In this document: positions 1,030-61,239 of the stretch, in pieces
How the letters are laid out: the number at the start of each line of letters is the position of its first letter
Numbering within the stretch: the first letter of the stretch is position 1
From: Marsupella aquatica
Taxonomy: Eukaryota > Plantae > Marchantiophyta
NCBI GenBank assembly: GCA_973895155.1
Contig: OZ316895.1
Coordinates: forward strand, 5,972,687 to 6,036,686
DNA length: 64,000 bases
Direction of reading: 5' to 3'
Program-made: the position numbers and the translations under genes
The notes under the pieces: model-generated
Seen by the model: the letters and a program-made list of their open reading frames with translations, nothing else
What the model was told of the DNA's origin: nothing
Databases searched by the model: none

Positions 1030-1410
1030 AAATAATGCATGCAAGTAAAACAACTAATGCATGCACCTAAAACAATTTGTGTATGCATGCACCTTGTGAC
1101 TTGCACATTTGCTCACCTTACATGAGCATATAAAACAACTAATGCATGCAAATAAAACAATTTGCATGCATTTTGTGGCTTGCACATTTGCTCACCTTGC
1201 ATGCACATAAAATAACTAATGCATGCAAATAAAATAATTTGTATGCATCTAAAACAATTTGTGCATGCACCTTATGGTTTGCACATTCGCTCACCTTGCA
1301 TGCACATAAAACGACTATTGTATGCAAATAAAACAATTTGCACATGCATCCAAACAATTTGTGCATGCATATTGTGATTTGCATAGTTGCTTACCTTGCA
1401 TGCACATACG
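1030..1410. repeat. Degenerate tandem repeat (~80-100 bp unit, ATGCATGCAAATAAAACAATTTG...GCTCACCTTGCATGCACATAAAA)
   Basis: About four recognisable copies of the GCACATTTGCTCACCTTGCATGCACATAAAA and ATGCAAATAAAACAATTTG blocks. Confidence 0.85.
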
Positions 1411-1519
1411 TAATAGTCAAATTATTTAGTTACCCCGTAACAAAATATAAATCTAACCTATATACTTACTAATATACTTAGTGATAATGATTTTATCATG
1501 AATAATTGAATTATCATGA

Positions 1520-2281
1520 CACCGGTTCCGCTTAGCTAGTGTTGTAGACGCCGAACTACCCTTCCGCTTCATCTCTTCAGTCCCTGATAACTCTCCAAGA
1601 ATGGTCTCCTTGATCGAAGCCAAAGTGTGACCCTTCAGCTCCCATACCGGCTACCCAGCGTTCTTAATCGCCTCTCAAATTCCAACGACTCGATCTCTCT
1701 GATCAGCAACTCGTCAAGCTCGACACTGGTTGGACTCCATAAGAATTTCTCGAGTACCTCCTCTATTCCCACAAAATCCGTCTTATAAATTCCCCATAAC
1801 CGCGCGAGCTCTGCCCTTTCCCTCAGTTGCTGCTCGTACCGGCTCGACGTATTTGTAAGTTGGTATGAGTTGTCGTGCTTCTTCAAGCAAACAGCCCCAA
1901 AACTTAGTCGCTTGATTCACCGTGGTCATTCCACCAAATAAAAAAGGAGCTTGAGCAATTTTCTACCCACCTCCCTTGATCGACCGACAGCTACTTTCGC
2001 CTCCCTAGGTCCCGATCGAACAAGAGAATGAGCGAATATATAGAGTGTTGGTCCCCTCCCCGCGAAGCCACCTCCTGATGGCTTGCATGATCAAGCCTGG
2101 ATTAGGTCATAACCCTAATCCCGCTTAATCGTGACCGTTGGATCCTACCCTATTGCAATCCTCCCCGTAACACGTTGTAATCAGCTTCGGTCTTTATTTC
2201 TACCTTATACTATCTGTCTAATCTTTATGTAGCCATTATTTTAGGCTTAACTAGTATCCATGATCCTGGCAAGGCATCACA
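1520..2281 (-). mobile_element. Truncated, diverged family-A LTR-like element (copy A0)
   Basis: Ends ...GGCATCACA at 2281, like 10700 and 34442. The minus strand encodes GMTTVNQATKFWGCL, ERAELARLW..FLWSPTS.ELDELL and ETILGELSGTEEMKRKG, homologous to the N-terminus of the 1210-aa ORF. Confidence 0.85.
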
Positions 2282-2282
2282 A

Positions 2283-2830
2283 TTACCCACTTTTGTGAGC
2301 CACTATGCTTCATATGCTTTCAACGCATGTGGTCCTGGACTTGTGTGGGATACAACTCTATGACAGTTAGTAGAGCCCACTACTGATGAAGAGAGCAGGC
2401 CATGGGATTCTCCATAGGCACTCGGGGGTTTCACTTCCACAAAAATGGCATATCACGTACGACGAAGGATAGGATCATTTTATTGGTTCTAAGGGAAGAC
2501 TTAAGAATTTTTGTAGAAGAACAATAGGGTCTTTTAAATTCAATTTTGAGACTTATAAGAACATTAGGGTCTTTTTAATCCATTTTTTAGAATATTCCAA
2601 GAATATTCCAACTTTATAGGGGTTAATTTTTTAAAAAAAATTCTTACATTTTAGGGGGTCCTAGGCCTCAAAACGTCGCAGGCGATGGGGAGGTCCCTAT
2701 ATAGTGAGACCCCCGAGCATAGGCACAACTGCTATTGCATCTGTGTTAGAGAGTTCACGCTGCCAAGTCCTTGGCCAAGCTTTGGATTTGAATTGTTGGA
2801 CTTGGATTATCAGCTTGGGAGTAGCAGAGC
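2283..2830 (+). pseudogene. C-terminal part of a DNMT3-like C5 cytosine methyltransferase domain inside a Gypsy pol
   Basis: Removing the MITE at 2421-2717 and one 1-bp frameshift gives LPTFVSHYASYAFNACGPGLVWDTTL*QLVEPTTDE(R)EQAMGFSIGTTAIASVLESSRCQVLGQALDLNCWTWII. This matches motif IX/X of DNMT3 (EMERVFGFPVHYT...ARQRLLGRSWSVP), with the same 18-residue GF-to-LG spacing. Confidence 0.7.
2421..2717. mobile_element. 297-bp MITE, hAT-like (8-bp TSD)
   Basis: 15-bp TIR CTCGGGGGTTTCACT / AGTGAGACCCCCGAG (1 mismatch). TSD CATAGGCA at 2413-2420 and 2718-2725. Confidence 0.92.
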
Positions 2831-3129
2831 AGTTTTGGATGCGCTCTGCTGGTGTTATAGATCGTCCATTGGTGAGCTTGCGGCCTACTGAGACAGTAGT
2901 GGCCACAATTGGGGGCGAGCAAATAGCCCATGGACCTATGGCAGGATTGACCAAGGTTGGACAAATTGTTGAGCAAAAAGGGACTGCTCTTGAAACTATT
3001 GCTATATAGCAATCATCAGCTATCTTTTCTACCCTACAAAAGGATATTAGGGATTTGGTGAAGAGTTGCGAGCCACAAATTGGTCCTAAGTTGATAGGGG
3101 AGGAGAGATATCGCATGCATCATTCCTAA

Positions 3130-4645
3130 AGAGTTACTGGAATTGTTTTGCATTTAGCATAAAGGATTTGGGAATTGAAGGGCCCTGGTATTCAAATTGA
3201 ATTGGCTAGTGATGCGCCAATCTTTGGTAGACCATACCGTTATAGTGACATAGAGAGAACTTTGATTCAGAGCAAAACTTAGGATTTGTTGGAGGTTGGT
3301 TTGGTGGAGATCTCATAAGGGGAGTATGCATCTGCCACAGTGATGCCAGTCAAAAAGGATGTGCATGGCAATTACACTAATAGGCGCATGTGTGGTGATT
3401 ACCAACCTATTAATCGTCATACAAAATATGATCGATATGCCATGCCTACACCTGAGGAGATCTTTGATGTTGTAGGGCATGCAAAGGGTTTTAGTTCATT
3501 GGACCTGAGGGCAGGGTACCATTAGCTTCCAATCAGACATTTTAACAGGTCCAAAACAACATTCTGGGGAATTGATTTGCATGGCAATGATTGTTTGTAT
3601 CAGTGGTTGTTCTTACCATTTGGGTTGAAGAATGCACCAGCTGAATTCCAGAGAGTCATGGATCAAATTCTTGCAAGTTTGGATTAAATTGTTAGATGTT
3701 ACATTGATGATATTTTGGTCTATTCTTCCACTGTGGAAGAACAGTAACAACACTTGCAGATTGTGTTGGAGAGATTGAGAGAATATGGGTTGAAACTCCA
3801 TCCTGGCAAGCGTAAGTTCTTCCAAGACCAGATTGAGTATTTGGGCCACCCAAGGGGATTGGGTGTGCAACAGAATAAGATGGAGGTCATTACACAGAAT
3901 CCTCATCCTACTGATGTGAGTAGAGTTCGTGCATTCTTGGGATTGACGAGCTACTACAGGAGGTACGTTAAAGGATTTAATTAGCCAGGTTGCTAAACCT
4001 TTAACCATACTCACTAAGTTGGATCATGAGTGGATTTGGGGTGATGATCAGGAGCATGCCTTTCAAGAGTTGAAAAAAAGATTGGCATCATCCCCTATTT
4101 TGAGAAGACCCATTTCAGGGAGACCATTTCAGCTACACACTGATTGGCGTGGAGTAGGACTTGGAGCAGTGCTTACTCAAAAGGATGATGAGGGGAATGA
4201 GTTTGTTGTGGCATATGCCAGTAGATCAAACAATTCAACATAAGCTAAATATAGCTCTTATGAGGGAAAGTGTTTGGCGGCAGTGTGGGCTATGGCATAC
4301 TTCCGTTGCTACTTATTTGGTAACCCTTTCACCTTGATAATTGATCATCTGCCTCTCAAGTGGTTAATGAAGTCTGACAAGCTTATTGGGAATCTTGCAC
4401 GATGGACATTGTTGTTATAGGAGTATGATTTCCAGGTTGTGGATAGGTCTGGAAAAGTGAACTTGGATGCAGATGGATTAAGCCACAATCCATGTACTAG
4501 TCAAGAGGATGAGACTGGAGCCAGATGGCATGATGAGTCAGATAAAGAGATGATGCTAGGATGACATACATCTGCCTTCCTTTATTGGGTTCTAGCATGC
4601 AGTGGATCTATGGACACTATTCATTGGATGAAGTAGATGATGAGT
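3130..4645 (+). pseudogene. Ty3/Gypsy pol remnant (reverse transcriptase + RNase H), multiple stops and frameshifts
   Basis: RRMCGDY, LDLRAGYH, LPFGLKNAPAEFQRVMD, CYIDDILVYS, FLGLTSYYRRYV, FQLHTDW, VVAYASR and DHLPLKWL motifs. Cut off at 4645 by a CACTA terminus before the integrase. Confidence 0.95.
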
Positions 4646-6031
4646 CACTAGAAGAAACCCACCCTTTCTGAGACCACAAAGAACGTGACTTGTCCGAGAC
4701 CTTCATGAAATAGCGACTCCAAAGTTGTTGGTGTCATGTTAGTCACACCTTCTTGACTGAGTTTTGGTGAAGTTTTGAGGAGTCATGTTTACAACTTTTA
4801 GGGAAGTTGTAACTATAACTCAGTTAAGGCAATTAGGTTGAAGTCATACAAGCGACTCTACATTAGCGTACAACTTATGAGAGCACAACATTTGAGCCCT
4901 TCAACCTTAAAGTATGAGATCTAACCCAATACATATGATTTTGGATACACCATATGTCATCCCACATAGATTTAATTATAGTCAGGTCATACCATTTTAA
5001 ACCATTAGTGAGTATTCCATCATTATTCCTGCCCCCATTTAGACACCATGAAGCGCGCCCCAGCCCCATTCAACTGCAAAAAGGATTTGTGAAAGCTTGC
5101 TAACCTAACTTAATGCTTTTTGTAGTCAATCTCTAATTTTTCTATCGCCGTCTTCTGGTCGTGCCAAAGGCGTGCTTAATTATCACCCAATTTCAGCCTC
5201 ACATATGTAGGTTGGGTTTACTTATTGCCATGCCCCGTAAACCTTCATGTTTCCCATGCCCCCTTCATATATGACAACCAATGCATGGTTCATGTTCAAT
5301 ATAAGTCCAACTTAAATGTTCAACTTAAATATATATGATCAGCTCTTCACTACCCCAACCCTAAAAAAATGTACTTTTCATAATGGTAATGTGGGGTCAT
5401 ATATACCTGACTATTTGGCCACATTTTCACCAAAGGGGGTGGTTCAAAGTTGTGACTAACCACTCACCCCACATATAACTATTGCGTAAGTCCTTTGGTT
5501 TCAAAGGAAAAAACTAATTAGGCAAATCATAGACTTTTGTGTCTCTTTTGTGAACTAATGTCTCCACTTCAATGTGCGTGAGTGTGCCTTTGGACACAAG
5601 TTTAGGGTGTGCGGGTTTTGTTTAACACGGCAGTAGAGTGCAAAGTTGAGTTGAATGTGCGCGGGAACTCAGCGGTGTGAGAAAAACTCGCTTGTCCATT
5701 GTGCTTACGGCCGGGGATATTCATCGTGCCTGAAGGTTTTGTGAAGGGTTTTGTGCGAGGAGCTTTACGGACTTCACTCCCGCTTGAGAGATGGTGATGG
5801 CAGGCAGGTGCAGCAGCAGCGCTTGATCAAGGTGCAACTTTATTGCGTAAGTCCCTGCTCGTCGTCTGGATATGTCATTGTTGTCGGGGTCTTCATGCTC
5901 ATCTGATTCGTCTTCTGCTCTTTGTGGCCGAGAGTCGACTACCTCACTCACTGACTTCTTGTCCAATGCATACCACAACCCTATTCCTTGTTCTCAGTCT
6001 GCGAGTTTGTGAGCTTTGGACCAGAGCAGAT

Positions 6032-9000
6032 TGTGGTGCGTCCCATGGCTCCCTAAACCCAAGAAACCCCCCAGCTCAAGCCGATTCCCGCAGGTTTCGT
6101 GCTTGGCGAGGCTGTTTCCGCGGCTTAGCGGCATGGGACGCTGCTAACCTTCTACTACTACTATTAACATTTTACACACATATACTGGACAGATCCTTCA
6201 TCGGGTCATGAGATACGTAGCCGGCCTAATATAGGCCTTCCCCTGTCTTCCCCTGTCTTCCCCTCCGTCTTGTTAGGTATGTTTGGATTCCGCCGCCGGA
6301 ATGATCCCCAATAGGCTTGGTTAAGCCGCTAAGACCTCTCTTAGCTCGACACATCCAACTCTCACTCCCCTGCTTACTTTCCTTCCTTCTGTTGATGTGG
6401 GCACTCTTCACACAAGTTAATGCGACACACAAATAGCAAAATGACTCATTCTGACTGAGTCATACCATGCACTTGCCATACAAACAGTACATCTCATACA
6501 CAAGTTCTGCGAACTAAGCCGTGAGGCCAACTCTATTCAGCTCTTAGGCATGAGGAAACATGAATATACACAAGGGTCACTGTATGACTAACCGAGAGCT
6601 TCTCGTACTACTTGATCCCAGCCCGGCTGGTGCAAACTAAAAACTTGCTAAAGAAGAGGCCCTGAGCTCCCCGCTGCCCAGGTACTTATCCTGGTAGTGG
6701 ATCCGCCATTCTTTGCATCGTAAGCCTAATCTACTTAACAGTAATCTACTTGCCCGAATCTACCTATGTACAGCAAGGCAGGAGCACAAGTGTTGCTCCT
6801 ACCAGTGGGACCGCAATCCCACTAAGCTAAGTGTCAGGGCCGCTCCTGGTTCTGATCCTAATCCTAAACGTGGAGATCCGCGCCCGCCCTGCCCACTCAC
6901 GCCTCCTCCCTCCACGTCCGCCCTCCCTAAAAGGAACGGCGCCCTTGCACCGTCACGACACCGGTGGTGGATCCTTAATGGACGCCCCCAGCGCTTCCTC
7001 CTCAGCCACTGCCGTAGGCTCATTCCCTGACAGATTACCTGCCCTTGACTGAGTCAACTCTCCATCGGCCTGACTGGGTCCACCATCGGCGTCGGCATCG
7101 GCTCGAGAATCGGTTACGGCCTCAGCCTCGGCTACGGTCTCCCCGGCCTGCTCAAGAGGCGGATCTGGAATACTGGCCTCCTTACTGAGTAGTTCGGCTT
7201 GGGCCGCACCATCCCTACCTGTGATCATAGCGGGATCTATTGCCGTATTCATGTCGGAGGATGGTGCTGGTTCTACCTCTTTGGTCACCACGGCTTGTGG
7301 AGTCGGATTACTCCTTGACCCTGAAGGTTTCCGCTTTTTCTTCTTTTCTGGTTCGGCAGCTGGTCCCTTCCCCTTCCCACTTACCTCCGGCACTGGTGCA
7401 GTTGGCGCGGCTTTTTCTTCGGCCAGTACCACTCTTGGTAACTTGGTTGCCCCAATTGGAGTTGGGCCTGATGAAGACAAGCACCTAAATACTGCGGCTT
7501 GTTTCTTCAGCCGCTCCGTTTGGTTGTCGGCCCGCCGCTGGAGGTTCTCCATCTTCCTCGTGATTTCCTCCAACTCCTCCTGGGTCTCATCCAGGTCCTT
7601 GCGTGCCTCCTCTAGTTCCTTCTGGGCTTCCTCCCGTTCTTGTTTCAAGGTAGTCCTCTCCTCCTGGGTTGCTTTTAGCTCCTTGTCGAGCTCTGCAATG
7701 ATGACAGACTCCATCTGGTTCATCTTGGCGTAAGTCTGTTCGAGCATCTCGTCCTTCTCCCTTAGGTCGGCCTTGAAGCTGGCCGTCAGGGACGCAAGCT
7801 CCTGCTGCAGCGCCATAATCCCTTGATAGGATTTCCCTAACTCGGCCTCCTGCTGCTCAAGGGCTCCGCAGATTTTCTCGAGCTCCCCTTTCAACGCCCA
7901 TTCCTTTCTTTGGGTCTCCGCCATGGCCCGGCTGTTGGCTGTTATGTGGGCCTCCTCTGTATTCTTCAGCTCTTGCTTCCACTTCTCCCTCTCTTTGATC
8001 GTGTCGGCCAACTCTTCCTGCGTCTGAGTCAGTTTATCCTTGATATTCTGATTATCAGCCTGCGCGGTGTCCAACTGCCCCTGCATGATGTTCAGCTCAT
8101 GTCGTTTAATCCGCAGTTCATCTTGGGCTTTCTTGGCCGCCCTTAGATCTTCAATCTCGGCTTCCATCCTCCTAAGCCGCCGAATGACCTCGTCCTTCTT
8201 GCTTCTCTCTAAAGCCACCGCTTCTTCTAATTGGTGCTTCTCCAACTGCTCCCTATGGAAAAAGGGTCCTACCTCCAACTCCTCTCCAAAGATGCCGAGC
8301 GCAAGTTCCCCACACATCTCACCATACTCCATGGCTCTATTCTTAGCGTAGGTGGAGTAAGTAAAAGTGATCGGCATCGCCCATCGCGGCCTCTGCTCCC
8401 AAGCCGTCCTGCGGATCTCTTCAATCGTGGCTAGAGGTTTGCTTCCTTTTTTGGCTAGCCGCCTGATGTCCTCCGGCCAATCTCCTCCTGGTAAATCCTT
8501 TTCCTTAGCCAGGGCGGCCTCCTCCTCCTGCTTGATTCGCTCCTGAAATTTCTGCACCGTCTGTTTTATGCCGTCGAAGCTCGGGGGAGCAACATCTGGT
8601 GGGGGAGACTCAGGGCTACTCTGCTGGTTGGGGTTCCCTCGCACTACCCTTGGAAGTGTGGGGACAAACCGGCCACAGGTCCTTACTCCTGGAACGTGAT
8701 GGTCCGACCCATAGCCGGAATTATCATGGCTGCAGTCCTCCACTGCCTCCTCTACCTCTTGGACGTCCGGCTTCTCCCTCTCCTCTTCGTCGGTAGGAGC
8801 TTCAGGCAATTCTGCCTCAGATTCGGAGCTTGAGGTTCCCACGTACATTCGAACACCTGGCTTGGATTCCGGCCTGATTCTCTCCTTGTCTCCAGCAAAG
8901 GGGTTTTCTCTTGTGAGCCGGTGTAGGCCTACCTCTGTAGTAGTGTCCTGCATTGTTGCCGTTGCCGTTGTTGTTGCCGATGCCGATTTCTTTTCTTTCT

Positions 9001-10700
9001 CCAGTAGTTTCAGCAGACTCTGCATGCCTGGTTGCTGCATCGGCAAGTCTTCCTTCCTGGGCCTAAACACCTGCTCGATCGTAGGACTAACAGGTGGTTG
9101 AGGCTTCTCAGCCAACGGCCTCGGCGTTGGAGCTTCCTCGGGTGCCCTTACCTGCAGGGGAAGTACCGGGGCAAAAGTCTGACCTCTGGCATACCGGCAC
9201 AACAGCGGCATGTGATAGCCAAGCCGCGACACGCTCCCCATGCCGATTACCTGCTGCTCCTCCTTTAAGATCTTCTTCAATTGGTTGAGGAGGTACCCGT
9301 TGTAGTCCCGGCTTGGGTCTGGCCTTTCTGCCAGATAGACCTGTGCCTTGCCGATCTCTGCCCTCGGCAAGTTACAATGCATGGTCACCCGCAAGAAGTC
9401 GATCATCTCTCCTATGTGCGGGTTGGTGCAGGTGTTCCGGAAGAAGCCATTCTTCGTTGATGGCCCGGGGAACGACCGGAACTCCTTGTCAGGCAAGGTC
9501 TTCCTGGTATCAACTTTGGTCTTATTGCCTATCGGCAAGCCAAACACTTCGGCAATTACCTTGGGAGTAAGATAGAAATCCTTCCCATATATCCTCGTGC
9601 AATTGGTCTCGGGTTCCCATGACCCCACGAATTCTAATAGGTCTGACTCCGGTACCTCCGGCTTCAGCCATGGTAATCTTACAAAGGCCTCCAAGCCGGA
9701 TCCGGCCATGAAGCCTTGGTACTTCTTGGTCTGCATGGCCGTAAAGCATGCATCCTCCTCCCGTGCAAAATGTAGTTGCACCTCCACCGGTAGGGTTGCC
9801 GCCCAGCCCTTCCAGGTGTCATCCCTGGTTGGAATGGCCTTGATGGGATCGACCTCCTCCTCTTCGGCTTCTCCCTGCCTCCTGCTCTGCTGCTCGGCTA
9901 GCTTCTTTGGTGCCGCCGACCTCGTTCTTTTTGCCGGGGTGGCTTCATCGTTGACGGCCCCCTTCCTCTTCATCTCTGCTGCCGTGGAGGTTTCTCCTAG
10001 CACCGTTGCCTGGGTCCACCTTTCCGTGCTACCCTTTAATTCCCAGTGTATGTCGTTGCATTTCTTGATGGCCTCTCGGATGCCGACGACGCTGTCTTTG
10101 CAAAACAGAAGATCGTCGAGTTGATTGGAAGTAGGCGTCCACAGGAACTCGTCCTTGATGAGTTTGCCTCCTAAGAAAGCCGTCTTCTGCAGCTCCCACA
10201 ATCGAGCGAGCTCCTGCCGTTCTCGAGCTGCCCTTTCTGACTCCTCGTCCTCGTAAGTCTTGATGTACTCAGTTGCCCGTTCGAACAGGCATCCCCAGAA
10301 ATGTGCCGCTTGATTGACGTTGCTCATACCCTCCTTAGGTCGATCGTCGGTATCTACTCTCTCCCCGAGTGCTTGCCTAAGCAGCTGACAGTAGTTGGCC
10401 TCCCGTAGTCGTCTGCCTAGTTCGTGCTCGCAAATGAGCCACCATCTCCTGCAAGCACTCCTTACCCCTCTCCTCCGCCGGTCCTTCTTCCCGTTGATCC
10501 TTCCTAGCCGCCGACGCTTAACGCGCCCTAACCCTAATCGGGTTTTCACCCTCAGCCTTACCTCCGGCCTCGGCCCGGGTTCCATGGTTGCCCCTAATTG
10601 TTTATATTTTCCTTGTTTTGTCCCTATACTAAGGTGTTCCTAGGGTGCCTTCCTGCTTTACCCACTTAACCGGCCGAGTGATTCCTGTCTAGGCATCACA
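6032..10700 (-). mobile_element. Family-A 4669-bp solo-LTR-like element (copy A1, intact)
   Basis: Termini TGTGGTGC...GCATCACA (imperfect inverted repeat). Perfect 5-bp TSD CAGAT at 6027-6031 and 10701-10705. No internal direct repeats and no RT/IN motifs. Confidence 0.95.
6953..10585 (-). CDS. 1210-aa element-encoded protein: PMD/plant-transposon-like domain, low-complexity linker, long coiled coil, basic NLS-like patch
   Basis: Uninterrupted ORF. The motif LLEFVGSWEPETN...FYLTPKVIAEVFGLP resembles the Plant Mobile Domain core (ERWxPETHTF...ITLxDVxxLxGLP). About 250 aa of heptad-rich E/K/Q/L sequence follow, then EKKKKRK. Synonymous-biased divergence from copy A2. Confidence 0.9.
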   Translation of the reverse strand: MEPGPRPEVRLRVKTRLGLGRVKRRRLGRINGKKDRRRRGVRSACRRWWLICEHELGRRLREANYCQLLRQALGERVDTDDRPKEGMSNVNQAAHFWGCLFERATEYIKTYEDEESERAARERQELARLWELQKTAFLGGKLIKDEFLWTPTSNQLDDLLFCKDSVVGIREAIKKCNDIHWELKGSTERWTQATVLGETSTAAEMKRKGAVNDEATPAKRTRSAAPKKLAEQQSRRQGEAEEEEVDPIKAIPTRDDTWKGWAATLPVEVQLHFAREEDACFTAMQTKKYQGFMAGSGLEAFVRLPWLKPEVPESDLLEFVGSWEPETNCTRIYGKDFYLTPKVIAEVFGLPIGNKTKVDTRKTLPDKEFRSFPGPSTKNGFFRNTCTNPHIGEMIDFLRVTMHCNLPRAEIGKAQVYLAERPDPSRDYNGYLLNQLKKILKEEQQVIGMGSVSRLGYHMPLLCRYARGQTFAPVLPLQVRAPEEAPTPRPLAEKPQPPVSPTIEQVFRPRKEDLPMQQPGMQSLLKLLEKEKKSASATTTATATMQDTTTEVGLHRLTRENPFAGDKERIRPESKPGVRMYVGTSSSESEAELPEAPTDEEEREKPDVQEVEEAVEDCSHDNSGYGSDHHVPGVRTCGRFVPTLPRVVRGNPNQQSSPESPPPDVAPPSFDGIKQTVQKFQERIKQEEEAALAKEKDLPGGDWPEDIRRLAKKGSKPLATIEEIRRTAWEQRPRWAMPITFTYSTYAKNRAMEYGEMCGELALGIFGEELEVGPFFHREQLEKHQLEEAVALERSKKDEVIRRLRRMEAEIEDLRAAKKAQDELRIKRHELNIMQGQLDTAQADNQNIKDKLTQTQEELADTIKEREKWKQELKNTEEAHITANSRAMAETQRKEWALKGELEKICGALEQQEAELGKSYQGIMALQQELASLTASFKADLREKDEMLEQTYAKMNQMESVIIAELDKELKATQEERTTLKQEREEAQKELEEARKDLDETQEELEEITRKMENLQRRADNQTERLKKQAAVFRCLSSSGPTPIGATKLPRVVLAEEKAAPTAPVPEVSGKGKGPAAEPEKKKKRKPSGSRSNPTPQAVVTKEVEPAPSSDMNTAIDPAMITGRDGAAQAELLSKEASIPDPPLEQAGETVAEAEAVTDSRADADADGGPSQADGELTQSRAGNLSGNEPTAVAEEEALGASIKDPPPVS

Positions 10701-13346: not shown

Positions 13347-13687
13347 TCAAACAAATGTGTTGGGCTTGGTGGCCTTGTAAGTCGTCTTTAGCTTTCGTGA
13401 TGGAGGTTGAATCTTGCGGTACGTCAAGGGGAACTTGATCTTTGAATCATGGAACTGCTTGGTACTTTCTCGCTTGCATAGAGAGACAGGGACTGTCGTA
13501 GTCTTGATGATCTGGATGCAAGGGAACCGAAGTCTATGACAAGAAGTCATATCATCATACATCTGTTCTACAGCTCCGTTCAACGTGGTATCATGATATT
13601 CCTTGTACATGTTGTGATAACCTGTACGACTCTGATACCTCACCCAGATACCGAAGTTCTTAATTGTGGTGGGCTTTTTTCGAAGAT
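13347..13687 (-). pseudogene. RPL18a: Captured terminal exon of 60S ribosomal protein L18a (eL20)
   Basis: [39 protein letters not shown]...IQIIKT...[18 protein letters not shown]...[12 protein letters not shown]. Preceded by an acceptor CAG (13690-13688) and a 1-bp frameshift. No upstream exons recognised. Confidence 0.92.
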
Positions 13688-14227
13688 CTGGTAGACACAT
13701 TATTCAGCATTTGCTAACTTCGAAACTAGAAGGGTAACACATTAAACAACAAAGAAACTCACAACATCCTTCTTTGGTCCTTCAGAGTCTGTACTTTGAT
13801 TATGAATTTTGACTGAGTTTCTGTTTACTGAAAGAATGTGACTGTGTAAGAGTTCCATTTGGCAGTGGATTGGTTGAAAGCACTTCATGCTAGTGTGTTG
13901 TCCATAGCTCTTCAACCAGCTTTCGTCTTCCTTGTCTTTCACCACTTACGATGACATCAATTCAGCTAAGACCATAGAAGGTTCCAAAGCATCTAACTTG
14001 TCAAATCGCATTCTGTTACATCAAGGACTAAGGTGTTGGGTATCAAAGGAGACAGCACAACAAACACGCTGAAAAGACTTCAGGACTGGGTTCAACAAGG
14101 TAGTGAAGGTGCTTACAACCATAGTAAGTATGCATTCTGTATCTTTCTCTGTTGATGCATAATGGGAGTTGTAGTTGGCAAGAGTTCCATAGGGCCAAAT
14201 ATGAACAGATCCAGAAGTATGTGTATG

Positions 14228-15687: not shown

Positions 15688-16456
15688 AGGACCACTTGTC
15701 ACACCGCATGCATAGACCAGATACCATTGACCTATAGCTTAACACTCTGACTTCAACACAGAGGATATTTACTTAAAATTTTGATGTATGAGCAATTTTG
15801 GGTCCAGGGTTTAGGGTCAACAGTACATAACTTATCCTATTAAGCTTGCACTAAGTAAAATATCCTAATTTAAGAGGCTAGCAAACTCGCTTAAAAGTCT
15901 CTATTGAAAGACAGCTTTCATGACTGCTTTAACCTGGTGAACATTGCAACGTTCAATGAATTAATGGGCCATGTGATAACCTGTAAAATGTGATTTATGC
16001 CTCACTTATTGTCTCAGCCACTATCATAGCCTATTTAGGATGTATACATTTCAACTCTTATGACACTGCTTCATACCAATCCTCTTTGAAGAATGATTGT
16101 TTTACATGTCACGACTATTGTATGTGATTCAAATGCATGAAATGTTGTTGCAGATCTCATTTGGTGAATCATAGCCACAATTAAAATTGAGGTGTTGGTG
16201 GAGCAATTGTATTAGGGAATCAGTTTTGTGTGTTGGCTCAACATACCAAAAGTATGTTTGCTCTGCATCCTTGTGTGGCCATTCCAATTGATTGCAGTAG
16301 CAAATGCCTTTGTACCTTAAATGCTAAATATATTTTACTTTCTGTGCAGTTTGCTAAATTGTAGAGTCTATCTAAATACCTTTGTACCTTAAATGCTAAA
16401 TATATATATTACTTTCTGTGCAGTCTGCTAAATCGTAGAGTCTATCTCATGTGCAG

Positions 16457-17137
16457 GCATGGCACGACCTAAAATTCAAGCCAAAAAGTGTGTGACAGAG
16501 GTGAGGAACACAAGTGTACTTGGGGCAGATGCTACTAACTTCTCTGCAAGTCAGATTTTCCAGAAGGCAGCTCATTGTTGTGCCATTTGTGACGATGGTG
16601 GGGGCCTGGTCATTTGTGAGGGCCCTTGCATGAGGCATTTCCACCTCAACCTGGAGTCTGACCTTGCTGCAGAAAACAATTGTCCAGGGGTGGGCCTCCC
16701 GTCAACACACCAGGGAGACTGGATGTGCACTGATTGTTTGGAGAAGCAGGCTAAGTGTGCACAGTGTGGAAAGTTGGGGTCCTATGAGGGCTTTGTTGAT
16801 GCCCCAACAATTGTTAGGAAATGTCCAGACCGTTTTTGTGTGAGATTTTTCTGTTTTGAGTGTTTGCCTTCTCATGCCACAGCTTGCCCACTTCATAGGT
16901 GCAAGGCATGTGGTGAGCATGATCATGAGTACTGGACTGACATAGTCCACTGTGCTAGGTGTCCCACCATGTGGCACTATCATTGCCTGAAAGATTGTCA
17001 AGCAGAGGGTTATGCTTGTGACAGAAATCTATGATCACTCTGCACATGGTGTTGATCGATGGATATTTTATTGTCATCGCCATGCCATTGATCCTACCTC
17101 GCGCACTCCTATGAGAGATCACATATCTTGGCTGTGA
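16457..17137 (+). pseudogene. EDM2-like composite PHD-finger module (one frameshift near 17008)
   Basis: CAICDDGGGLVICEGPCMRHFH...C.GVG...WMCTDC...CAQCGKLGS...CPLHRCKAC...CARCPTMWHYHCL, then in the shifted frame WIFYCHRHAIDPTSRTPMRDHISW. Collinear with the EDM2 PHD region and its IYC.HEID...TP.RDH tail. Acceptor TGTGCAG ends at 16456. Confidence 0.85.
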
Positions 17138-17794: not shown

Positions 17795-18761
17795 CGGTAC
17801 ATGAAGCTGCTCAAAGGTCACGTGAGAACATATTACAAACCTGAAGCAAGCATGGCTAAAGGTTACATCAAGGATGAGACTCTGGGATTTATGACCGAAT
17901 ACATAGCACAATATGAGCATGTGAAGACCAGGGTGTGGAATTCTGATGAGGAGGAAGGGGTGATAGGTGAAGTACTGGAAGGGGCTGCAACCACAAAGAA
18001 CCTGACCACATCTATGAGGGACTTGGCACATGACTTTGTATTGCACAACACTGTGGTGATGGAACCCTGGATACAATGAGTACATACATGTGCTATAATC
18101 CAGTTCATGAGCTGAAATGTTGTGTGTGTGATTTTCTCCTTCAGCCTGTTCATATTTACCCAAGCTAATGCTGTGTGGTTGTTTGTTTAGGGAGTATGAG
18201 TCATTGAAGGCGGCCCATCCCACTGTAGGAACAACTTTTCCAGGTTTCATGGAGTGGATTAGAGTGGCAATTAGAGAGCATCACGAGACCCACCCAGACA
18301 TGGATGCAGACGTTTACCTACTGTCTAATGCCCCTAGCCTGAAAGTGAAGACTTACAAATGGATGAGAGCATATGGGAATCACTTTCGAGTGAAGGATGG
18401 TGATAGTGCCTATAGGGTGACAAATGACTGTGGGCTCATCACTGTATTTGAGCAACAGAGCCACAATCACGACAGGGCCTGGATGGAGATGGGATATGTG
18501 GGAGAATTAGTTGATATATGGGCTCTGGACTATGGGGCGGTGTCCAAACCTGTGATTCTTATGAAAGGTTCATGGGTGCGGCAGGATTGGCTTGGTAATA
18601 GGGCTACCATGAAGAGAGACAATGACGGTTTCTTGCTGGCCAATTTCAGAGGGAAATTGCTCGAATGGTCTGAGCCATTTGTGTTTCCCAGTCAGGTAGA
18701 GCAAGCTTTCTTCTTGGATGTGGAACACTCCCCAGGTTGGCGTGTAGTGTATCATAAATAG
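17795..18761 (+). pseudogene. CACTA transposase TnpD/TNP2 C-terminal half (DUF4218/DUF4216-like); catalytic N-terminal part absent
   Basis: MKLLKGHVR...PEASMAKGYIKDETLGF, YKWMRAYGNHFRV, GYVGELVDIWALDYG and EPFVFPSQVEQAFF...GWRVV. Intron at ~18080-18190. Confidence 0.9.
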
Positions 18762-19747
18762 GCCAGGCAACGTCGGATGGAAGGATCAAACCTTGAGTTT
18801 CATTTACACTCTCATAGTGCCTTTGATCGTCGGCGTTCAGACCAAGTGCCTGTAGTTCATGATAGCGGGGACTTCATTGACAAGGGTAGATGCATTTGCT
18901 GAAGGAGGCGAATTCAGAGATGCAGATACCAATAGTGTGCCTGTGCCATGAGTAATGTGAATTGTTTGCATGGACAATAGTGAGGGGATGTGTAATAAAG
19001 TAATTCTGAAGCAACACAGATATATGGATGGATGCCTGGTGATTGTGGTTGCATTGTATTATACGGGGTGACCATAGATGACATGTTTTTGTGGTCCAGT
19101 AGGATGGAACAGAGTGACACAGAGATGTGTGAGTATGAAAGGAAAGCTATGGAACAACGAGCATATGTGAAAGCCAAAATTGCAGAACTGGATCTGGAAA
19201 AGGATGTGGCTGAATTGTAAGGGAACAATTCTCAACTACACCCCTCCGCTGAGTTTGTGTGACATGAATAGTTCAATGTGGCACTGAAATTGTGACTGTA
19301 TTCTCATATTGGAATGTCGTAGAGCAGCAGGTTTTTCAAAGAAACAAAAGGAGTACGCAAGAAGGGTGACCATCACGATATCTGGGCGTGTGCGTCGAAG
19401 TGACAGGTTGAGCAAGAAGGTCGTACCTACAATGGCAGAATGTGGAGATGACATGGATGCTACGCAAGTGGGTGCAGACACTAGACAAGAAGATACAGAT
19501 GATGAGTATTTTCCAGAGGAAATGGATGAGGATGGGGGTTATGAAGATGAATAAATTGCAGAGCAGCCCCAAAAGAAACAGGTAAGTAGTTTTCCCAACA
19601 AGCTAGGTTTAGAGTTAAAAACTCTTGTTGAGAGGTTTCATATGTTCAGTACTACACCCTATGTACCTTGCTTAGTTCCTGACATTGTAGTTGGTGATGT
19701 GATGCAGCGTCCTACCAGTTCTATTTTGCCTGCAAAGCCTGTGCATG

Positions 19748-22700
19748 TGTGATGCCTAGCCAGGAATCACTGGGCTAGTTTAAGGGGAAAAGGGAAGTGT
19801 ACCCTAGAAACACCTTAGTATAGTTACATAAATAAGGAAAATATAAACAATTAAGGGTGACTATGGAACCCGAGCCGAGGCCGGAAGTAAGGACGCCAGG
19901 GGAGAGAATACGATTAGGGTTAGGGCACGCTAAGTGCCGGCGGCTAGGGGTAACCAACGGGAGGGAGAACCTTAGGAGGAGAGGGGTAAGGACCGCTCGC
20001 GAGGAGTAGTGGCTCATTTTCAAGCACGAACTGGGTAGGCGACTACGGGCGGCCAACTACTGTCAACTGCTTAGGCAAGCGCTCAGGGTGGGAACAGATA
20101 CCGACTATCAACTCGAGAAGGGTATGAGCAACGTCAATCAAGCGGCACATTTTTGGGGATGCCTGTTCGAACGGGCAACTGAGTACATTGGGACTTACGA
20201 GGACGAAGAATCGGAGAGAGCAGCTCAAGAACGGCAGGAGCTCGCCCGATTGTGGGAGCTGCAGAAAGCTGCTTTCTTAGGAGGAGAACTCATCAAGGCT
20301 GAATTCCTGTGGACGCCTACTGGCAACGAGCTAGACGACCTGCTGTTTTGCGAAGATAGAGTCATCGGCATCCGAGAAGCCATCAAACACTGCAATGACA
20401 TACACTGGGAGTTGAAGGGTAGCACGGAGGGGTGGACAAAGGCAACTGTGCTAGGAGAGACATCCACGGGAGCCAAGATGAAGAGGAAGGGGAACAACAA
20501 CGAAGAGGCCACCCCGGCAAAAAGAACGAGGTCGGCGGCACCAAAGAAGCCAGCAGAACAGCAAAGCAGGAGGCAGAGAGAAGCCGAGGAGGAGGAGGTC
20601 GACCCCATCAATGCCATTCCAACAAATGATGACACCTGGAAAGGCTGGGCGGCGACCCTACCGGAGGAAGTGCAATTACACTTTGCACGGGAGGAGGATG
20701 CATGCTTTACAGCTATGCAGACCAAGAAGTACCAAGGCCTCATGGCCGGATCCGGCTTGGAAGCCTTCGTAAGATTACCATGGCTGAAGCCGGAGGTGCC
20801 GGACTCAGACTTGTTAGAATTCGTGGGATCATGGGAGTCCGAGACCAATTCCACAAGGGTGTATGGGAAGGATTTCTATCTCACTCCCCGGGTGATTGCT
20901 GAAGTGTTTGGCTTGCCGATGGGTAATAAGACCAAGGTTGATACCAGGAAGACCTTACCTGACAAGGAGTTTCGGTCATTCCCAGGACCATCAACAAAGA
21001 ATGGCTTCTTCCGGAACACCTGCACCAACCCGCACATCGGAGAGATGATCGATTTCTTGCGGGTAACCATGCACTGTAACTTGCCGAGGGCAGAGATCGG
21101 CAAGGCTCAGGTCTACCTGGCAGAAAGGCCAGACCCAAGCCGGGATTACAACGGGTACCTCCTCAACCAACTGAAGAAGATCTTGAAGGAGGAACAGCAG
21201 GTGATCGGCGTGGGAAGCGTGTCCCGGCTTGGCTATCACATGCCGCTGTTGTGCCGGTATGCCAGAAGTCAAATCTTTGCCCCAGTACTTCCTCTATCGG
21301 CAAGAGCACCGGAGGAGGTCCCGGAGCAGAGGCCGGCAACGGAGAAACCCAACCCGCCCGACAGTCCTACAATCGAGCAGGTGTTTAGGCCAAGGACGGA
21401 GGACTTGCCGATGCAGCAACCAAGCATGCAAAATCTGCTGAAATTGCTGGAGAAGGAAAAGAGAACGGCAACGGCAACGGCACCAATGCAGGACATTGCT
21501 CCAGAGGTGGGCCTAAGCCGGCTTACAAGGGAAAACCCCTTTACTAGGGTCAAGGAGAGAAGGAGGCCGGAACACGAGCCGAGAGTCCGGATGTATGTCA
21601 GAGCCTCAAGTCCCGAAGCCGAGGAGAAGCAGGCCGTAGCTCCCGGCCACGACAAGGAGAACAAGAGGTCAACAAGGAAGCCGGAGGAGGAACCAAGACC
21701 GGTGAGAGGTGAAGCCGTGTTCACAACAAAACCAAGAGAACAACGGGAGAAGCTGGTAGTCCAAGCCGAGGAGGAGGCGGTAGAGGACTACAGCAATGAT
21801 GACTCCGGCTACAGGTCGGATCATCATGTTCCAGGAGTAAGGACCTGTGGCCGGTTCATCCCCACGCTCCCAAGAGTAGTTCGAGGAGACCCGAGCCAGC
21901 AGAGCAGCCCCGAGTCTCCCCCACCAGATGTCGCTCCCTCGAGCTTTGACGGCATAAAACAAACGGCGCAGGAATTTCAGGAGCGAATCAGGGAGGAAGA
22001 GGAGGCAGCCCTGGCTAGGGAAAAGGATTTACCAGGAGGAGAATGGCCAAAGGACATCAAGCGGCTTGCAGAAAAATGAAGCATCCCTCCAGCCACAATA
22101 GAAGAGATCCGCAAGGCAGCTTGGGAGCACAGGCCGCGGTGGATGATGCCGATGACTTCTACTTCCTCCACCTATGCTAAAAATAGAGCCATGGAGTACG
22201 GGGAAATGTGTGGAGAGCTGGCGCTCAGCATCTTTGGGGAGGAGTTGGAGCAAGGACCCTTTTTTCAGAGGGAGATGTTGGAGAAGCGCCAATTAGAAGA
22301 AGCGGTGGCTTTGGAAAGAAGCAAGAAGGATGAGGTCATCCGTCGGCTTAGGGCAAGGGAAGCCGAAATCAAAGACCTGAGGGCGACCAAGAAAGCCCAA
22401 GATGAGCTGCGGATTAAGCGGCATGAGCTAAATATCATGCAGGGCCAATTGGATACCGCACAGTCTGATAATCAGATTATCGAGAATAAATTGACTCGAA
22501 CCCAAGAAGAGTTGGCCGATGCGATCAAGGAGCGGGAGAAGTGGAAGCGAGAGCTGAGGGATGCAGAGGAGGCCCACATAACAGCCAACAACCAGGCCAG
22601 GGCGGAGACCCAGAGAAGGGAAAGGGCATTGAAGGGGGAGCTCGAGGTTATCCGCGGAGCCCTTGAGAAGAAGGAGGCCGAGTTAGGGAAATCCTATCAA

Positions 22701-24485
22701 GGGATTATTGCGCTGAAGCAGGAGCTTGCGTCCCTGACGGCCAGCTTCAAGGCCGACCTGCGTGAGAAGGACAATATGCTCGATCAGACTTACGCCAAGA
22801 TGAACCAGATGGAGTCTGTCATCATTGCAGAGCTCGACAAGGAGTTAAGAGCGACCCGGGAGGAGAGAGCTGCATTTAAACAAGAATTGGTGGAAGCCCA
22901 AAAGGAGCTGGAGGAGGCGCGCAAGGACCTGGACGAAGTGCAGGAAGAGTTGGAGGAAAGCACGCGGAAGCTAGAGAACTTACAACGACGAGCCGACAAC
23001 CAAACGAAGCGGCTGAAGAAACAAGCCGCAGTATTTAAGTGCTTGGCTTCATCAGGGCCAACTCAAATTGAGGCCACTAAGTTACCAGGAGTGGTACTGG
23101 CCGAAGGACAAGCCGCGCTATTTGCACTAGTGCCGGAAGTAAGTGGGAAGGGGAAGGGGCCAGCTGCCGAACCAGAAAAGAAGAAGAAGCGGAAACCTTC
23201 AGGGTCAGGGAGTAATACGGCCCCATAGGCCGTGGTGACCAAGGAGGTAAACCCAACACCGACCTCAGGCAGGGTTACGGCAGAGGATCCAACTACCCTA
23301 GAAGAAGGGGATGACAAAGCCGAGGCCAGGATACTCGGTAATGAAGCCGAGGTACCCAATCTGCCACTTGAGTGTGCAGGGGAGGCCGTAGCCGTGGCTG
23401 AGGCCGTAGCCGAGGCTGATGTTGAAGCCGATGTCGTTGCCGGGGGTGGACCCAATCAGGCCGATGGAGAGTTGACTCAGTCAAGGGCAGATAATTTGTC
23501 AGAGAACGAACCTACGGCAGTGGCTGAGGTGGAAGCGTTGGGCCGGGGCATCCACTGAGGAACAGACACCGCTGCCATGACGGTGGTGGAGGGCCGCTCC
23601 TTTCAAGGAGGGCGGACGTGGAGGGAGGAGGCATGAGTGGGCAGGGCGGGCTCAGATCTCTAAGTTTAGGATTAGGATCAGGACCAGGAGGCGGCCTTGA
23701 CACTTAGCTTAGTGGGATTGCGGTTCCACTGGTAAGAGAAACACTTGTACTCCTGCCTCGCTGTACATAGGTAGATTCAGTTAGGTAGATTAAAGCTTAC
23801 GCTGCAAGGAATTAGGCGGATCCACTACCAGGATAAGTACCTGGGCAACGGGGAGCTCAGGGCCTCTTCTTTAGCAAGTTTTTAGTTGCACCAGCCGGGC
23901 TGGGATCAAGTAGTAAGAGAAGCTCTCGGTTAGTCATACAGTGACCCTTGTGTATATTCATGTTTCCTCATGCCTAAGAGCTGAATAGAGTTGGCCTCAC
24001 GGCTTAGTTCGTAGAGCTTGTGTATGAGATGTATTGTTTGTATGGCAAGTGCATGGTATGACTCAGTCAGAAGGAGTCATTTTGCTATTTGTGTGTCGCA
24101 TTAACTTGTGTGAAGAGTGCCCACATCAACTAATAGAGGAAGGAAAGTAAGCAAGGGAGTGAGAGTTGGATGTGTCGAGCTGAGAGAGGTCTTAGCGGCT
24201 TAACCAAGCCTATTGGGGATCATTCCGGCGGCAAAATCCAAATATACCTAACAAGACGGAGGGGAAGACAAGGGAAGGCCTAGATTAGGTCGGCTACGTA
24301 TCTCATGACCCGATGAAGGATCTGTCCAGTATATGTGTGTAAAATGTTAATAGTAGTAGTAGAAGGAGGTTAGCAGCGTCCCATGCCACTAAGCCGCGGA
24401 AACGCCCTCGCCAAGCGCAGAATCCGCGGGAATCGGCTTGTGAAGGGGGGTTTCTGGGGTTTAGGGAGCCATGGGACGCACCACA
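19748..24485 (+). mobile_element. Family-A element, copy A2 (4738 bp, opposite orientation to A1, diverged subfamily)
   Basis: TGTGATGCC...GCACCACA with perfect 5-bp TSD GCATG at 19743-19747 and 24486-24490. Confidence 0.95.
19863..23558 (+). pseudogene. Family-A ORF, copy A2 (broken by several stop codons)
   Basis: Fragments 20088-22079, 22143-23228 and 23232-23558 are collinear with the 1210-aa protein. Confidence 0.9.
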
Positions 24486-24618
24486 GCATGCACCATACCA
24501 GCAGGGGGGCTGACCTCTGATCAAGGTTGGCGAGGTGGTAGTAGTGGTAGATCCCAGGCTGGTGCCCAATACTATGGCAGGGGGCAAGCTCTAGGTTATG
24601 CCCGTGGTAGAGGTAGAG

Positions 24619-27025: not shown

Positions 27026-29086
27026 CAGAGCAGGTCCAAACCCACAGTCTTGTGGGTATGGACGTCCACCTCAACCATGGGGATGTGAGTATATATCTAT
27101 ATGCCAGTTACTTGTGAAGGCATGGCACTCCTGAATTTCAGACTGCATATCAATTTTTGACATTGTTTGGGATGTATTGGATTCAGAGAACATGAAATTC
27201 TGTCCACCTGCCATTGCATGCAGATTCTGCCCAACCTGATTGGGCAAATGCTGGTAATGATCAATTCCAATGTCCACAAGGACAGACATGGGTTGAACCA
27301 GGTTGGGAGGATGGTGGTGGGTCGTGGAATGAACAAGGTTGGGAAGGTGGTGAAGGTGATTGGCAGGGATTTCAAAATACAATACCTACAAACGCTGGAA
27401 GAGGGGCAGGTAATGTCTGATCTTGTCAGCAATGGAAGAACTCATTATATGTGGAGTCCATTGACGTGGGGGGGATTCTGCACATGTATAATAATAGAAA
27501 ATGTATGTGTGCAGGTTGGATAGTCGAACCATCGACTCAAGTATTCACTAATGCCCCTATGCAGATGCAGCACGGAAGGGGGCCAGGTATGTTGGTGAAT
27601 GTTCATATATTTTCCTATAGTTTGTACTTAGTTTTCAGTGCATATGTTTGCACACACATACCTAGAAAGTGACATTATTTGGCTCCTGTACTAGGCTGGA
27701 CAGGTGGTCCAGGGTCACAACAATTCCAGAGTGCAGTCCCTGCACAAGCATCTACAGGCAAAGCTACAGGTATGTATGTTTGAAGAATTTTTCTTGAAGT
27801 GAAGCATTGAATGTTGCCGTCATCCATTCTTCTGTATGTAGTTCTCAAGCATGAATGGCATTGTATTTTCCTAGGTGGCTTCAGAACCCCTGGTAGGGTG
27901 AATGAAGGGGTGGCCAATACAACGCCCAGTACTACTGAGAGCAGTGCACGAGGGGAGGTGACAAAGAAAGGGAACGTAAAGTTGAATGAGAGACAATGGG
28001 TGGATGCTGAGTGTCCTCGTAAGAACCGTTGGCATGCTGATTTGAAAGCTGAAGTATTGCGTTGGTTAGATGTGAGTGTTATTAATTTTAAAAAACAACA
28101 TCCAAAAGATTGGAAGACTGTATGTGAAAATGTTGCTGCCAAATGGAATTATGTGGGCAGTGATTCAGATGGCGTGGACATAGGTTGCCTAGAGAGTACA
28201 GCAGGTAAAATCATAAAGCAAGAGAGGTGGAGAATGCATAAGGCTTGGAAGGAAGGTGGGGAGAAGCCAGATATGCCTCCACCAGCCAGTTGTGATGATA
28301 AAGTGTGGGCAAGGTTAGTAGCTTATTTTGTAACAGATGCTTCGAAAAAGAAGAGTTCACAGATGACCGAGGCCAGGTTGAGTGTTCAGAACCCTAATCT
28401 GACAGGAAGGACCGGCACTGCACCGACAGCAAAACGTTTGGTAAGAATCAATGGCCTAGCTATGTAATTTATGCTACACTATGTACTGTTTTTTAGTGTA
28501 AACCCATACATGTCAACTTTGTTTTTTAGTGTACATTCCCTGAATAATAATGATAACTTGTGTTTGCCATGCATGTGCAGAAAGCCCAATTGGGGCAAAG
28601 CCCTTCAAAAGAAGAGTTGAGGGCTGAAATTGTGAACACCCGGGCTCAAGTGGGTGCATTTGAATCCTCCAAGCATGTAAGTTATATGAGTTCTGATTGG
28701 TAATTGAATGACCTGCGTTGAATTTCAGGTGTACACTGTATATAACATTGATTGTGCATATATTGCCCAACATTTCATATGGAGTGATTGAACCTATACC
28801 CCTGTGTCATGTAGGGAGGTGGATCTTCACTTACAGAGATAAGTGGTCATTTGAAGGCTGTCGAAACATGTCTTCCAGAGATCAATGAACGTTTGAATTC
28901 ATTGACTGACTTGTTCCATGTGAACTTCAAGACATTAATGGAAGCTGTTGTGTCGGTGAGAGATGAAATTGATTCCAATTCTGCAGGAGTTCCACCATCA
29001 CCACTTGAGGTGGCAAAGTCAATGCACTCTTCTGGCATGCCAATGACATGTAGGCTTGAAGGTAAGGCCTTTACAACTGTGTGGGA

Positions 29087-34442: not shown

Positions 34443-35895
34443 GATGTGGAAGGACCATGGGATGTGGAAGGTCCATAGGATGTAGATGCCTCATCACCAG
34501 AAGTAGGTCTCACTTGGGAACTAGCCATGGCAACTAGTAGTTGCTCTAATTGAGCAATCTTAGCATCCTTTGGATCTATGGTTATAGCAGGGGTAGCGTC
34601 ACCTCCCTATCTCCCTGCATGTGGCATGCCACGACCACGTCCACCACCTCTACCTCCTCCTCCTCTTCCCTGATCATGTGTACGGGATCCTCCCCTCCGT
34701 AACTCAGGGTGGAGTGAGAAACACCTATCCTTGGTGTGTCCAGGAGCTCCACCTGATCCTCTATGATCTGGGCACTATCTCTGTGCATGATCCCCACCGC
34801 AGGTCCAATATCCTGACTGCTGTCCAACATAAGGGGGCACAAATCTCTGGCTGGTAGACTCTAGTGCAGTAGGCTTCTCCCTCTTGCTCTTCCGTGTAGT
34901 AGGCTGTGGTGTGGATCTAGATGCAGCCTTTGGTGCTTCCTTGGAAAATTTGGAAGTCACCACCTTCTCATTCACCATATTGAGCTCAATGCGCTCAGAA
35001 AGGGTAAAAACAACTACTAATGTGGGATCTGCATCCCTAAGCAGAGTGACATCTCTCACTCTACGTCGCAATTCTATGTCCAGAATTGCATACCAAAACT
35101 GGACTGCCTGAGCCTCTGTCACTCCCTTGGTGACAGTGATCAATCCGTGCATACGAGTGTATGTCTCACATTGACTCTCTCCAATCTTGCGCTGAAACTC
35201 CTGGAGACCCTTCAACTTATCAGTTCTCATACCCTGATAGTTCTGCTTCAGTACCTCAAAGAACTCCACCACAGGGTTAAATGCTGGTGCAACTCTAGTC
35301 CCTGTCACAATCACACCGGCAGGAGTAGCGGTGGATGCTACTGGAGTGCTACTGGTGGAGGGTGTGCCACTTTGGCTAGTGCTGCTAGAAGAAGCAATAG
35401 CTGTGGCAATGGGTTGGGGAGCCGCACTAGTGCCATAGGTGATGGACACGTAATTAGGGGACCAATGCTGCCTCCATGCCTCAATCTCAACCAAATGACC
35501 CTTCCAAAAGTCATGGTAGTCATCCATGGGTGGTCCTTCCAAATGCTGAAATAATCCCTTCCATGCCATGAAAGGGGTAAACAATGTGGCATTACGCAAT
35601 GTCTGCATATCGCACCACATATCAAACTCCTGGATGAAGTCATCCAGATCAATCATGCCAACTGCACCAGAGTATCGTCGTGGGCCCTTTGTAGCCCCGT
35701 ACATCTCGTCATATCCCACAACAAAGGTGCAACCACCTGATGATGAGGAGAACTGGTCACCGAGTCCTCGTCGGAATCATTGTTTGAAGCTGCACTACTG
35801 ACTGCTACCAATGCCGCTGGCCAAAACTGTGCCCCACTTCGAGTGAAACTGATCCGTTGTCCATCGGGTAACCCAGCAGCATCAGAAGAATCCAT
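34443..35895 (-). pseudogene. Ty3/Gypsy gag remnant with degenerate zinc knuckle, truncated by A3
   Basis: FIQEFDMWCDM...LFQHLEGPPMDDY, LQEFQRKIGES..ETYTRM and YWTCGGDHAQR*CP followed by an RGG-rich tail. Frameshift near 35725. Confidence 0.85.
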
Positions 35896-61205: not shown

Positions 61206-61239
61206 CCTTCAGTCCTGAAATTCAGCCATCTAAATTATT

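Follow-up and report, generated by a model that had tools for sequence, protein, structure and literature searches.

A Gypsy retrotransposon remnant with the end of a DNMT3-like methyltransferase in Marsupella aquatica, and a stop codon conserved between methyltransferase and reverse transcriptase in its relatives

Gypsy retrotransposons that carry a DNMT3-like cytosine methyltransferase (DNMT) have been described from one charophyte alga, and their activity was not demonstrated (PMC5890265). Two later papers mention 'streptophytes' in connection with such elements, without detail. Our literature search returned no report of Gypsy-DNMT3 elements in land plants or of a readthrough site in them, though subscription journals, Repbase, figures or supplements could hold one. 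A 64,000 nt stretch of contig OZ316895.1 from the liverwort Marsupella aquatica, here called the window, contains at positions 2283-4645 a sequence that an earlier note had read as a Gypsy element with a DNMT3-like methyltransferase ahead of the reverse transcriptase (RT). The locus raises the questions of whether this fragment belongs to an element family of that kind, and what the in-frame stop codon between the two domains represents.

We found that 2283-4645 is a dead remnant of a Gypsy retrotransposon, made up of the last quarter of a DNMT3-like C5-methyltransferase domain followed by RT and RNase H. The features in and around it, and one related fragment elsewhere in the window, are as follows.

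1559..2281, minus strand: diverged, incomplete 'A' element adjoining the DNMT fragment on the left (alignment to three 'A' elements).
2283..2412, plus strand: first piece of the DNMT3-like C-terminal part, target-recognition region to motif IX (77% identity over 39 aa to residues 588-626 of the relative P0001; translation).
2421..2717, no strand: 297 bp MITE with terminal inverted repeats and an 8 bp target duplication, 2413-2420/2718-2725 (sequence; contigs of other copies join across it).
2719..3006, plus strand: end of the DNMT domain (motif X, LGQALD) and ORF1 tail (69% identity over 89 aa to P0001 residues 633-721; motif X aligned to DNMT3A in the family profile).
3007..3015, plus strand: conserved in-frame stop in CAR-YYA context (TAG CAA TCA), natural end of a Gag-PR-DNMT ORF1 and likely readthrough site (junction comparisons across loci).
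3016..3174, plus strand: ORF2 start, spacer and pre-RT segment, frame-broken in the window copy (translation, comparison with relatives).
3175..3981, plus strand: Gypsy RT with several stops (PF00078 on two pieces; 64% identity to Marchantia P0008).
3983..~4590, plus strand: RT connection and RNase H, downstream of a frame break (PF17919, E 4e-19; PF17917, E 2e-15; 68% identity to P0008).
4646..4660, plus strand: CACTA-like transposon end, which truncates the element ahead of its integrase (sequence).
34443..35776, minus strand: Gag fragment of the DNMT-Gypsy family, a separate second copy in the 64 kb, cut by an 'A' element at 34442 (48-54% identity to Marchantia Gag-PR-DNMT proteins).

Three-frame translation of the DNMT part reads LPTFVS..GPGLVWD..EPTTDE from 2283, EQAMGFS after a frame break, and GTTAIASVLESSRCQVLGQALDLNCW from 2722, past the insert. 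The earlier note had allowed for a single 1 bp indel, which corresponds to a 1 bp loss seen as the frame break near 2391, but it left out an in-frame stop at 2361-2363 in the same piece. It had also described a MITE with an 8 bp target duplication; both insert and duplication were confirmed, with the register one base to the left of that given. The outermost bases of the MITE inverted repeats pair at 13 of 14 positions, other MITE copies align over the identical span (2421-2717), and contigs from other copies of the element bridge the site (2389>2721, 2418>2735, 2356>2718) in three of four public runs. From the length of the target duplication, we take this MITE to be of the hAT type. The proposal that the methyltransferase shares the overall frame of RT holds, but the frame is interrupted by a TAG at 3007-3009 and the stretch ~3090-3176 reads in a different frame from the DNMT and RT around it.

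Only motifs IX and X remain in the window copy. As motifs I-VIII are absent and a stop, a frame break and the MITE leave no complete open catalytic domain, this copy cannot make the enzyme. Neither an upstream DNMT remnant nor an integrase was found anywhere within the 64 kb window. The N-terminal catalytic motifs are missing, as had been noted, and the 'A' element remnant adjoins the fragment on that side; over 1559-1932 this remnant matches the three 'A' elements at 59-61% identity (E 3e-25 to 3e-18), and at 2261-2281 it looks like the end of one (19/22 bases, E 7.8, weak when taken alone). Contigs from the four public runs (two studies, among which may be the source of the window) cover this stretch by the thousands, and some of these bridge the MITE; the DNMT-Gypsy family thus has many diverged copies in those runs. 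When 1400-5400 was compared with other copies, the window copy gave A>G at 76-81, T>C at 58-66, G>A at 20-28 and C>T at 32-35 places, which is the pattern expected from the decay of methylated cytosines.

The profile search suggested by the earlier note had a divided outcome. The bare pieces 2283-2360 and 2719-3006 matched no Pfam family, PF00145 included, at E up to 10, but a protein search with 2719-3006 returned a single match among 333 candidates, P0001 (E 1.5e-29), and this closest relative consists of an aspartic protease followed by a DNMT with motifs I, IV, VI, VIII, IX and X that matches PF00145 (E 6e-12). The three window pieces, joined with an X at each break, also scored 129 bits against a family profile built from 41 relatives. 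As the best of 1000 shuffles of the same pieces reached 3.6 bits (447 scored at all), the match to the family profile is not due to chance. With the DNMT region of P0001 as query, 64 and 45 further matches were returned in two length classes, and among representatives clustered at 50% identity, 230 proteins matched at E up to 1e-30. Named relatives come from Marchantia polymorpha, Calypogeia fissa, three Sphagnum species, Klebsormidium nitens and Cymbomonas. One clade member, P0021, has been assigned in the database to an Obscuribacterales metagenome-assembled genome, on a 2.4 kb contig; its source is probably eukaryotic DNA in a bacterial bin.

The catalytic motifs missing from the window copy are present in its relatives, where the earlier note had suggested looking for them. 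Among 77 relatives with a DNMT span of at least 300 aa, drawn from P0001-P0109, the motifs occur in canonical order, with motif I kept in 70, motif IV with its cysteine in 71 (PC in 59), VI in 72, VIII in 72, IX in 73 and X in 67. Against the PDB, the family profile of 41 relatives matched DNMT3A/B best (E 2.5e-25), followed by DRM (1.6e-10) and HaeIII (3.6e-9), and the part of the profile with motifs IX and X aligns to the segment of DNMT3A cited in the earlier note. The predicted model of P0003 (pLDDT 80) found only DNMT3 structures (DNMT3A/B) among its best Foldseek matches (E 2e-18, TM 0.81 on the target). Profile and structure searches hence place the family domain nearer to DNMT3 than to DRM, to DNMT2 or to the enzymes of bacteria. 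The dN/dS of the DNMT was 0.095-0.175 in five of seven pairs, indicating purifying selection; of the other two pairs, one gave 0.72 between two decayed sibling copies and one was saturated. From its sequence, the DNMT of the relatives probably encodes an active enzyme, and 2283-4645 almost certainly belongs to the Gypsy-DNMT3 retrotransposons.

More complete relatives were found in metagenomes. A first scan with P0001 alone as query had given 55 pattern matches, none of which was confirmed, and the set described here is the best 80 of 151 loci. DNMT precedes RT in 57 of these 80 and lies behind RNase H in seven. The longer loci, such as L009, L019, L037, L045, L052 and L056, read Gag-PR-DNMT-RT-RH-IN-PHD, and a PHD finger follows the integrase in many of the 80. 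The order DNMT-RT-RH in the window copy is consistent with that of Gypsy-DNMT3 elements, in which DNMT lies between PR and RT. Of 23 long loci, three (L045, L046, L080) have both pairs of split direct repeats like those of DIRS elements (A1..B1-A2-B2), and several others have one pair; the repeats are not present in the window copy, which is cut at both sides. L045 (1676-10805) and L046 (6132-15346) combine split repeats and a DDE integrase with TG..CA ends and 4 bp target duplications, and no obvious tRNA primer site was seen by eye after their repeat A1. The ends and duplication of these two loci led us to reject Troyka as the family, since Troyka is described as having CG..CG ends and a 3 bp duplication and as occurring in animals only (PMC12440569).

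DNMT and RT share a frame but are not one open frame, as a conserved stop lies between them. The junctions of the 57 DNMT-then-RT loci (from the best 80 of 151) have a stop followed by CAR in 44, two stops in a row in four, a fused frame in three (L065, L069, L070), no stop in one (L033) and a broken junction in five (L026, L038, L047, L048, L050); for L049 and L079, the first of two stops was taken by hand. In the 44, the stop sits 21-28 codons before the RT seed, with RT in frame. The exact CAR-YYA context is found in the window and in six of the 57 (L022, L051, L052, L056, L061, L062), and CAR-YYC/T in 38 further loci. The largest family, with 37 of the 44 stop-CAR loci (37 of the 57), has CAA-CCC, which departs from the CAR-YYA consensus at the sixth base, after 22 TAG and 15 TAA; these 37 are near-copies and not independent in these counts. 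L033, without a stop, belongs to that family too. When seven family representatives were compared, the stop was TAG in all seven and the next six bases were 65% alike, versus 36% and 32% for the 45 bases on either side. L052 is an intact element with 1,369 open codons, one stop and 1,047 open codons, i.e. a single stop in 2,417 codons. Other copies in the four runs have no alternative letter at 5% or more at 3007-3015, and positions 2999, 3005 and 3026 are variable. Many of the relatives' proteins end 78-150 residues past motif X, P0001 at the place of the window TAG. As a stop followed by CAR recurs in 44 of 57 loci, the stop is invariant and its next six bases conserved among representatives, and L052 has only this one, comparison across loci indicates that the TAG at 3007 is a conserved feature and not decay. 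The earlier note had placed DNMT in pol; in this clade it instead ends the Gag-protease frame, before the stop. In plant viruses, CAR-YYA by itself directs readthrough, and retroelements need Gag and Pol at about 20:1 (PMC2194720, PMC4132726). Judged from the conserved context, ribosomes likely read through this stop at a low rate.

RT and DNMT trees including the Klebsormidium proteins, also proposed in the earlier note, were built with IQ-TREE in quick mode and without bootstrap; 24% of the columns in the DNMT alignment are filled by the window, the DNMT tree has no host DNMT3 root, and in the RT tree the outgroup was not separated from the rest by a single branch. Within these bounds, the two trees agree. 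A single branch separates the stop-bearing elements from the rest in the DNMT tree (19 rows, 99) and in the RT tree (13 rows, 99, one row being a second RT of L046 for which no DNMT was detected). This group includes the Marchantia, Calypogeia and Sphagnum proteins, and Klebsormidium and the other fused types fall outside it.

A second layout, RT-RH-DNMT-IN-PHD, was seen in loci L066, L067, L072, L073, L074, L077 and L078 and in proteins P0086 and P0089-P0104. Both trees give it a branch of its own (100), with which Cymbomonas P0105 groups, and it fits 65 of 142 new representatives, against six with DNMT before RT. Several members have G-W-E-C in place of G-W-P-C. This layout suggests that the domain either moved inside pol or was captured a second time.

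Our overall explanation, to which we give a probability of about 0.6, is an element that encodes Gag-PR-DNMT3, a leaky conserved stop and RT-RH-IN-PHD, with a DNMT made at Gag level that methylates new cDNA. Most ribosomes would stop after DNMT and produce Gag-protease-DNMT in bulk, and the few that read through would add RT-RNaseH-integrase-PHD, giving a ratio of about 20:1. DNMT would be made at Gag level because it lies ahead of a stop read through at a low rate. The protease would then release DNMT within the particle, and the element's own cDNA would be the first double-stranded DNA that DNMT encounters; cytosines of that cDNA would be methylated there or close by. Methylation ahead of integration could let the cDNA be taken for host DNA or enter the genome already silenced, ideas put forward in PMC5890265, and the PHD finger may steer integration. 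The packaging of DNMT and self-methylation of cDNA, as a part of this scheme read from sequence, we consider an even bet. More tentatively, and with somewhat more doubt than belief, we propose that a Gypsy-DNMT3 clade reaching land plants moved its translational switch behind DNMT, that an active DNMT3 became a bulk particle component methylating cDNA before integration, and that multi-copy families may add de novo methylation to bryophyte genomes.

An active or DNA-binding DNMT might instead have a target other than new cDNA: it could bind nucleic acid in the particle, or it could damp the activity of the family by methylating, in trans, other copies or the chromatin of the host. De Mendoza et al. 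name such roles, and the Klebsormidium Gypsy-DNMT3 enzyme did not methylate yeast DNA in their hands, a result that they call inconclusive (PMC5890265); output at Gag level would also exceed what is needed to mark one cDNA. Retention of the catalytic Cys, ENV and RxR in 71-72 of the 77 relatives argues for catalysis, and two DIRS-borne DNMT3 domains methylated CG de novo (PMC5890265). We regard a different target as rather unlikely.

Improbable in our estimate is that the element and its two-ORF layout are as described and that ORF2 is expressed through splicing, re-initiation or an internal promoter, and not through readthrough; this and a different DNMT target are not mutually exclusive. An intron separates Gag-protease from RT-RH-IN in Ogre elements (PMC6317226), and Tca2 is described as having a stop context that gave no readthrough in yeast and a promoter at the junction (PMC2194720). 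Predicted introns bridge the stop in the database gene models P0008, P0041, P0066 and P0067, and P0008 and P0041 cross the junction only as such spliced models, but the predicted joins vary between models, and in L052 the ORFs adjoin in frame with a single stop and no spacer. Re-initiation would be possible in the CAA-CCC family, where a Met lies three codons past the stop, and the first Met is at codon 5 in L051 and codon 14 in L056. However, it is 48 codons on in L022 and L061 and 117 in L052, behind a conserved pre-RT motif, so that three of six loci examined have no Met ahead of that motif. Conservation of the six bases past the stop, and not of the flanks, also speaks for readthrough. Finally, a host DNMT3 gene fragment lying beside an ordinary Gypsy RT through chance or one-off capture, which the incomplete window DNMT and the lack of Pfam matches to its pieces alone might suggest, has a negligible probability and is refuted by the recurrence of DNMT-then-RT in 57 of the best 80 of 151 loci and in K. 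nitens P0097. The agreement of the RT and DNMT trees speaks against it too, as does the absence from 26 relatives scanned of DUF3444, which host plant DNMT3 carries (PMC6453930).

The kind of element is already known from K. nitens (PMC5890265), and the earlier note's link to Klebsormidium is borne out by matching domain order and by the split repeats of relatives. KnitGypsy-Dnmt3 resembles the window's clade in its DNMT3-like domain in a Gypsy element, DIRS-like split direct repeats and purifying selection, and its DNMT was placed in the Pol ORF (PMC5890265). K. nitens P0097 has the order PR-DNMT-RT-RH-IN and is 47% identical to P0001 over the DNMT stretch. However, no stop interrupts P0097 between PR and IN, whereas the window's clade ends ORF1 with DNMT at the conserved stop, and the named relatives in the stop-bearing clade are land plants where KnitGypsy-Dnmt3 is from a charophyte alga. 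The DNMT that ends ORF1 at a conserved readthrough-type stop is new here, and the land-plant relatives also set this clade apart. Tobacco mosaic virus (UAG-CAR-YYA), MuLV gag-pol and soybean SIRE1 pol-env are described as readthrough systems (PMC2194720, PMC4132726), and the window and six of 57 loci match CAR-YYA; in contrast to those systems, the stop follows a protease and a methyltransferase, so that the more plentiful product, upstream of the stop, contains enzymes. Two ORFs are also present in Ogre elements, Gag-protease then RT-RH-IN, but an intron of ~274 bp lies between them, whereas the ORFs of this clade adjoin in frame; that survey mentions neither a methylase nor a PHD (0 occurrences; PMC6317226). 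Retrotransposon-borne C5 methyltransferases are shared with SymbioDIRS-Dnmt3, which also has two domain orders (PMC5890265), and with EpiLTRs, whose DNMTs are sister to DNMT4 and accompanied by DAM and a chromodomain (bioRxiv 10.64898/2026.05.21.726589). Unlike this clade, DIRS elements use a tyrosine recombinase.

The conserved stop predicts a need for DNMT in the amounts of a structural protein, a dose not foreseen by the 2018 model with DNMT inside Pol, and it explains gene models that end after DNMT or invent introns. The Marchantia polymorpha relatives, a cluster of 18 proteins around Mp4g09160, bring the question of why a transposon carries its host's silencing enzyme to a genetic model plant, and they come with the warning that bryophyte DNMT gene counts include transposon copies.

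Elsewhere in the window, 'A' elements are present as three near-complete copies (6032-10700, 19746-25178, 29087-34442) and the remnant at 1559-2281, and two of these four adjoin DNMT-Gypsy pieces (at 2281 and 34442). The 'A' element has a TG end and an ORF of 1,228 codons that encodes a coiled coil and matches no Pfam family; Atlas searches with this ORF gave matches all under 0.9 and a weak lead to Transposase_28-like extra ORFs. An intronless ribosomal protein L18a-like frame at 13347-13700 (minus strand; PF01775) is probably a retrocopy. NSD-like PHD fingers, DUF4216, Transposase_24 (CACTA-type), DUF7869 and an NIF phosphatase domain were found at 16432-17031, 18132-18758 and 27811-28464 (plus strand), 59749-61221 (minus strand) and 61436-62512 (plus strand).
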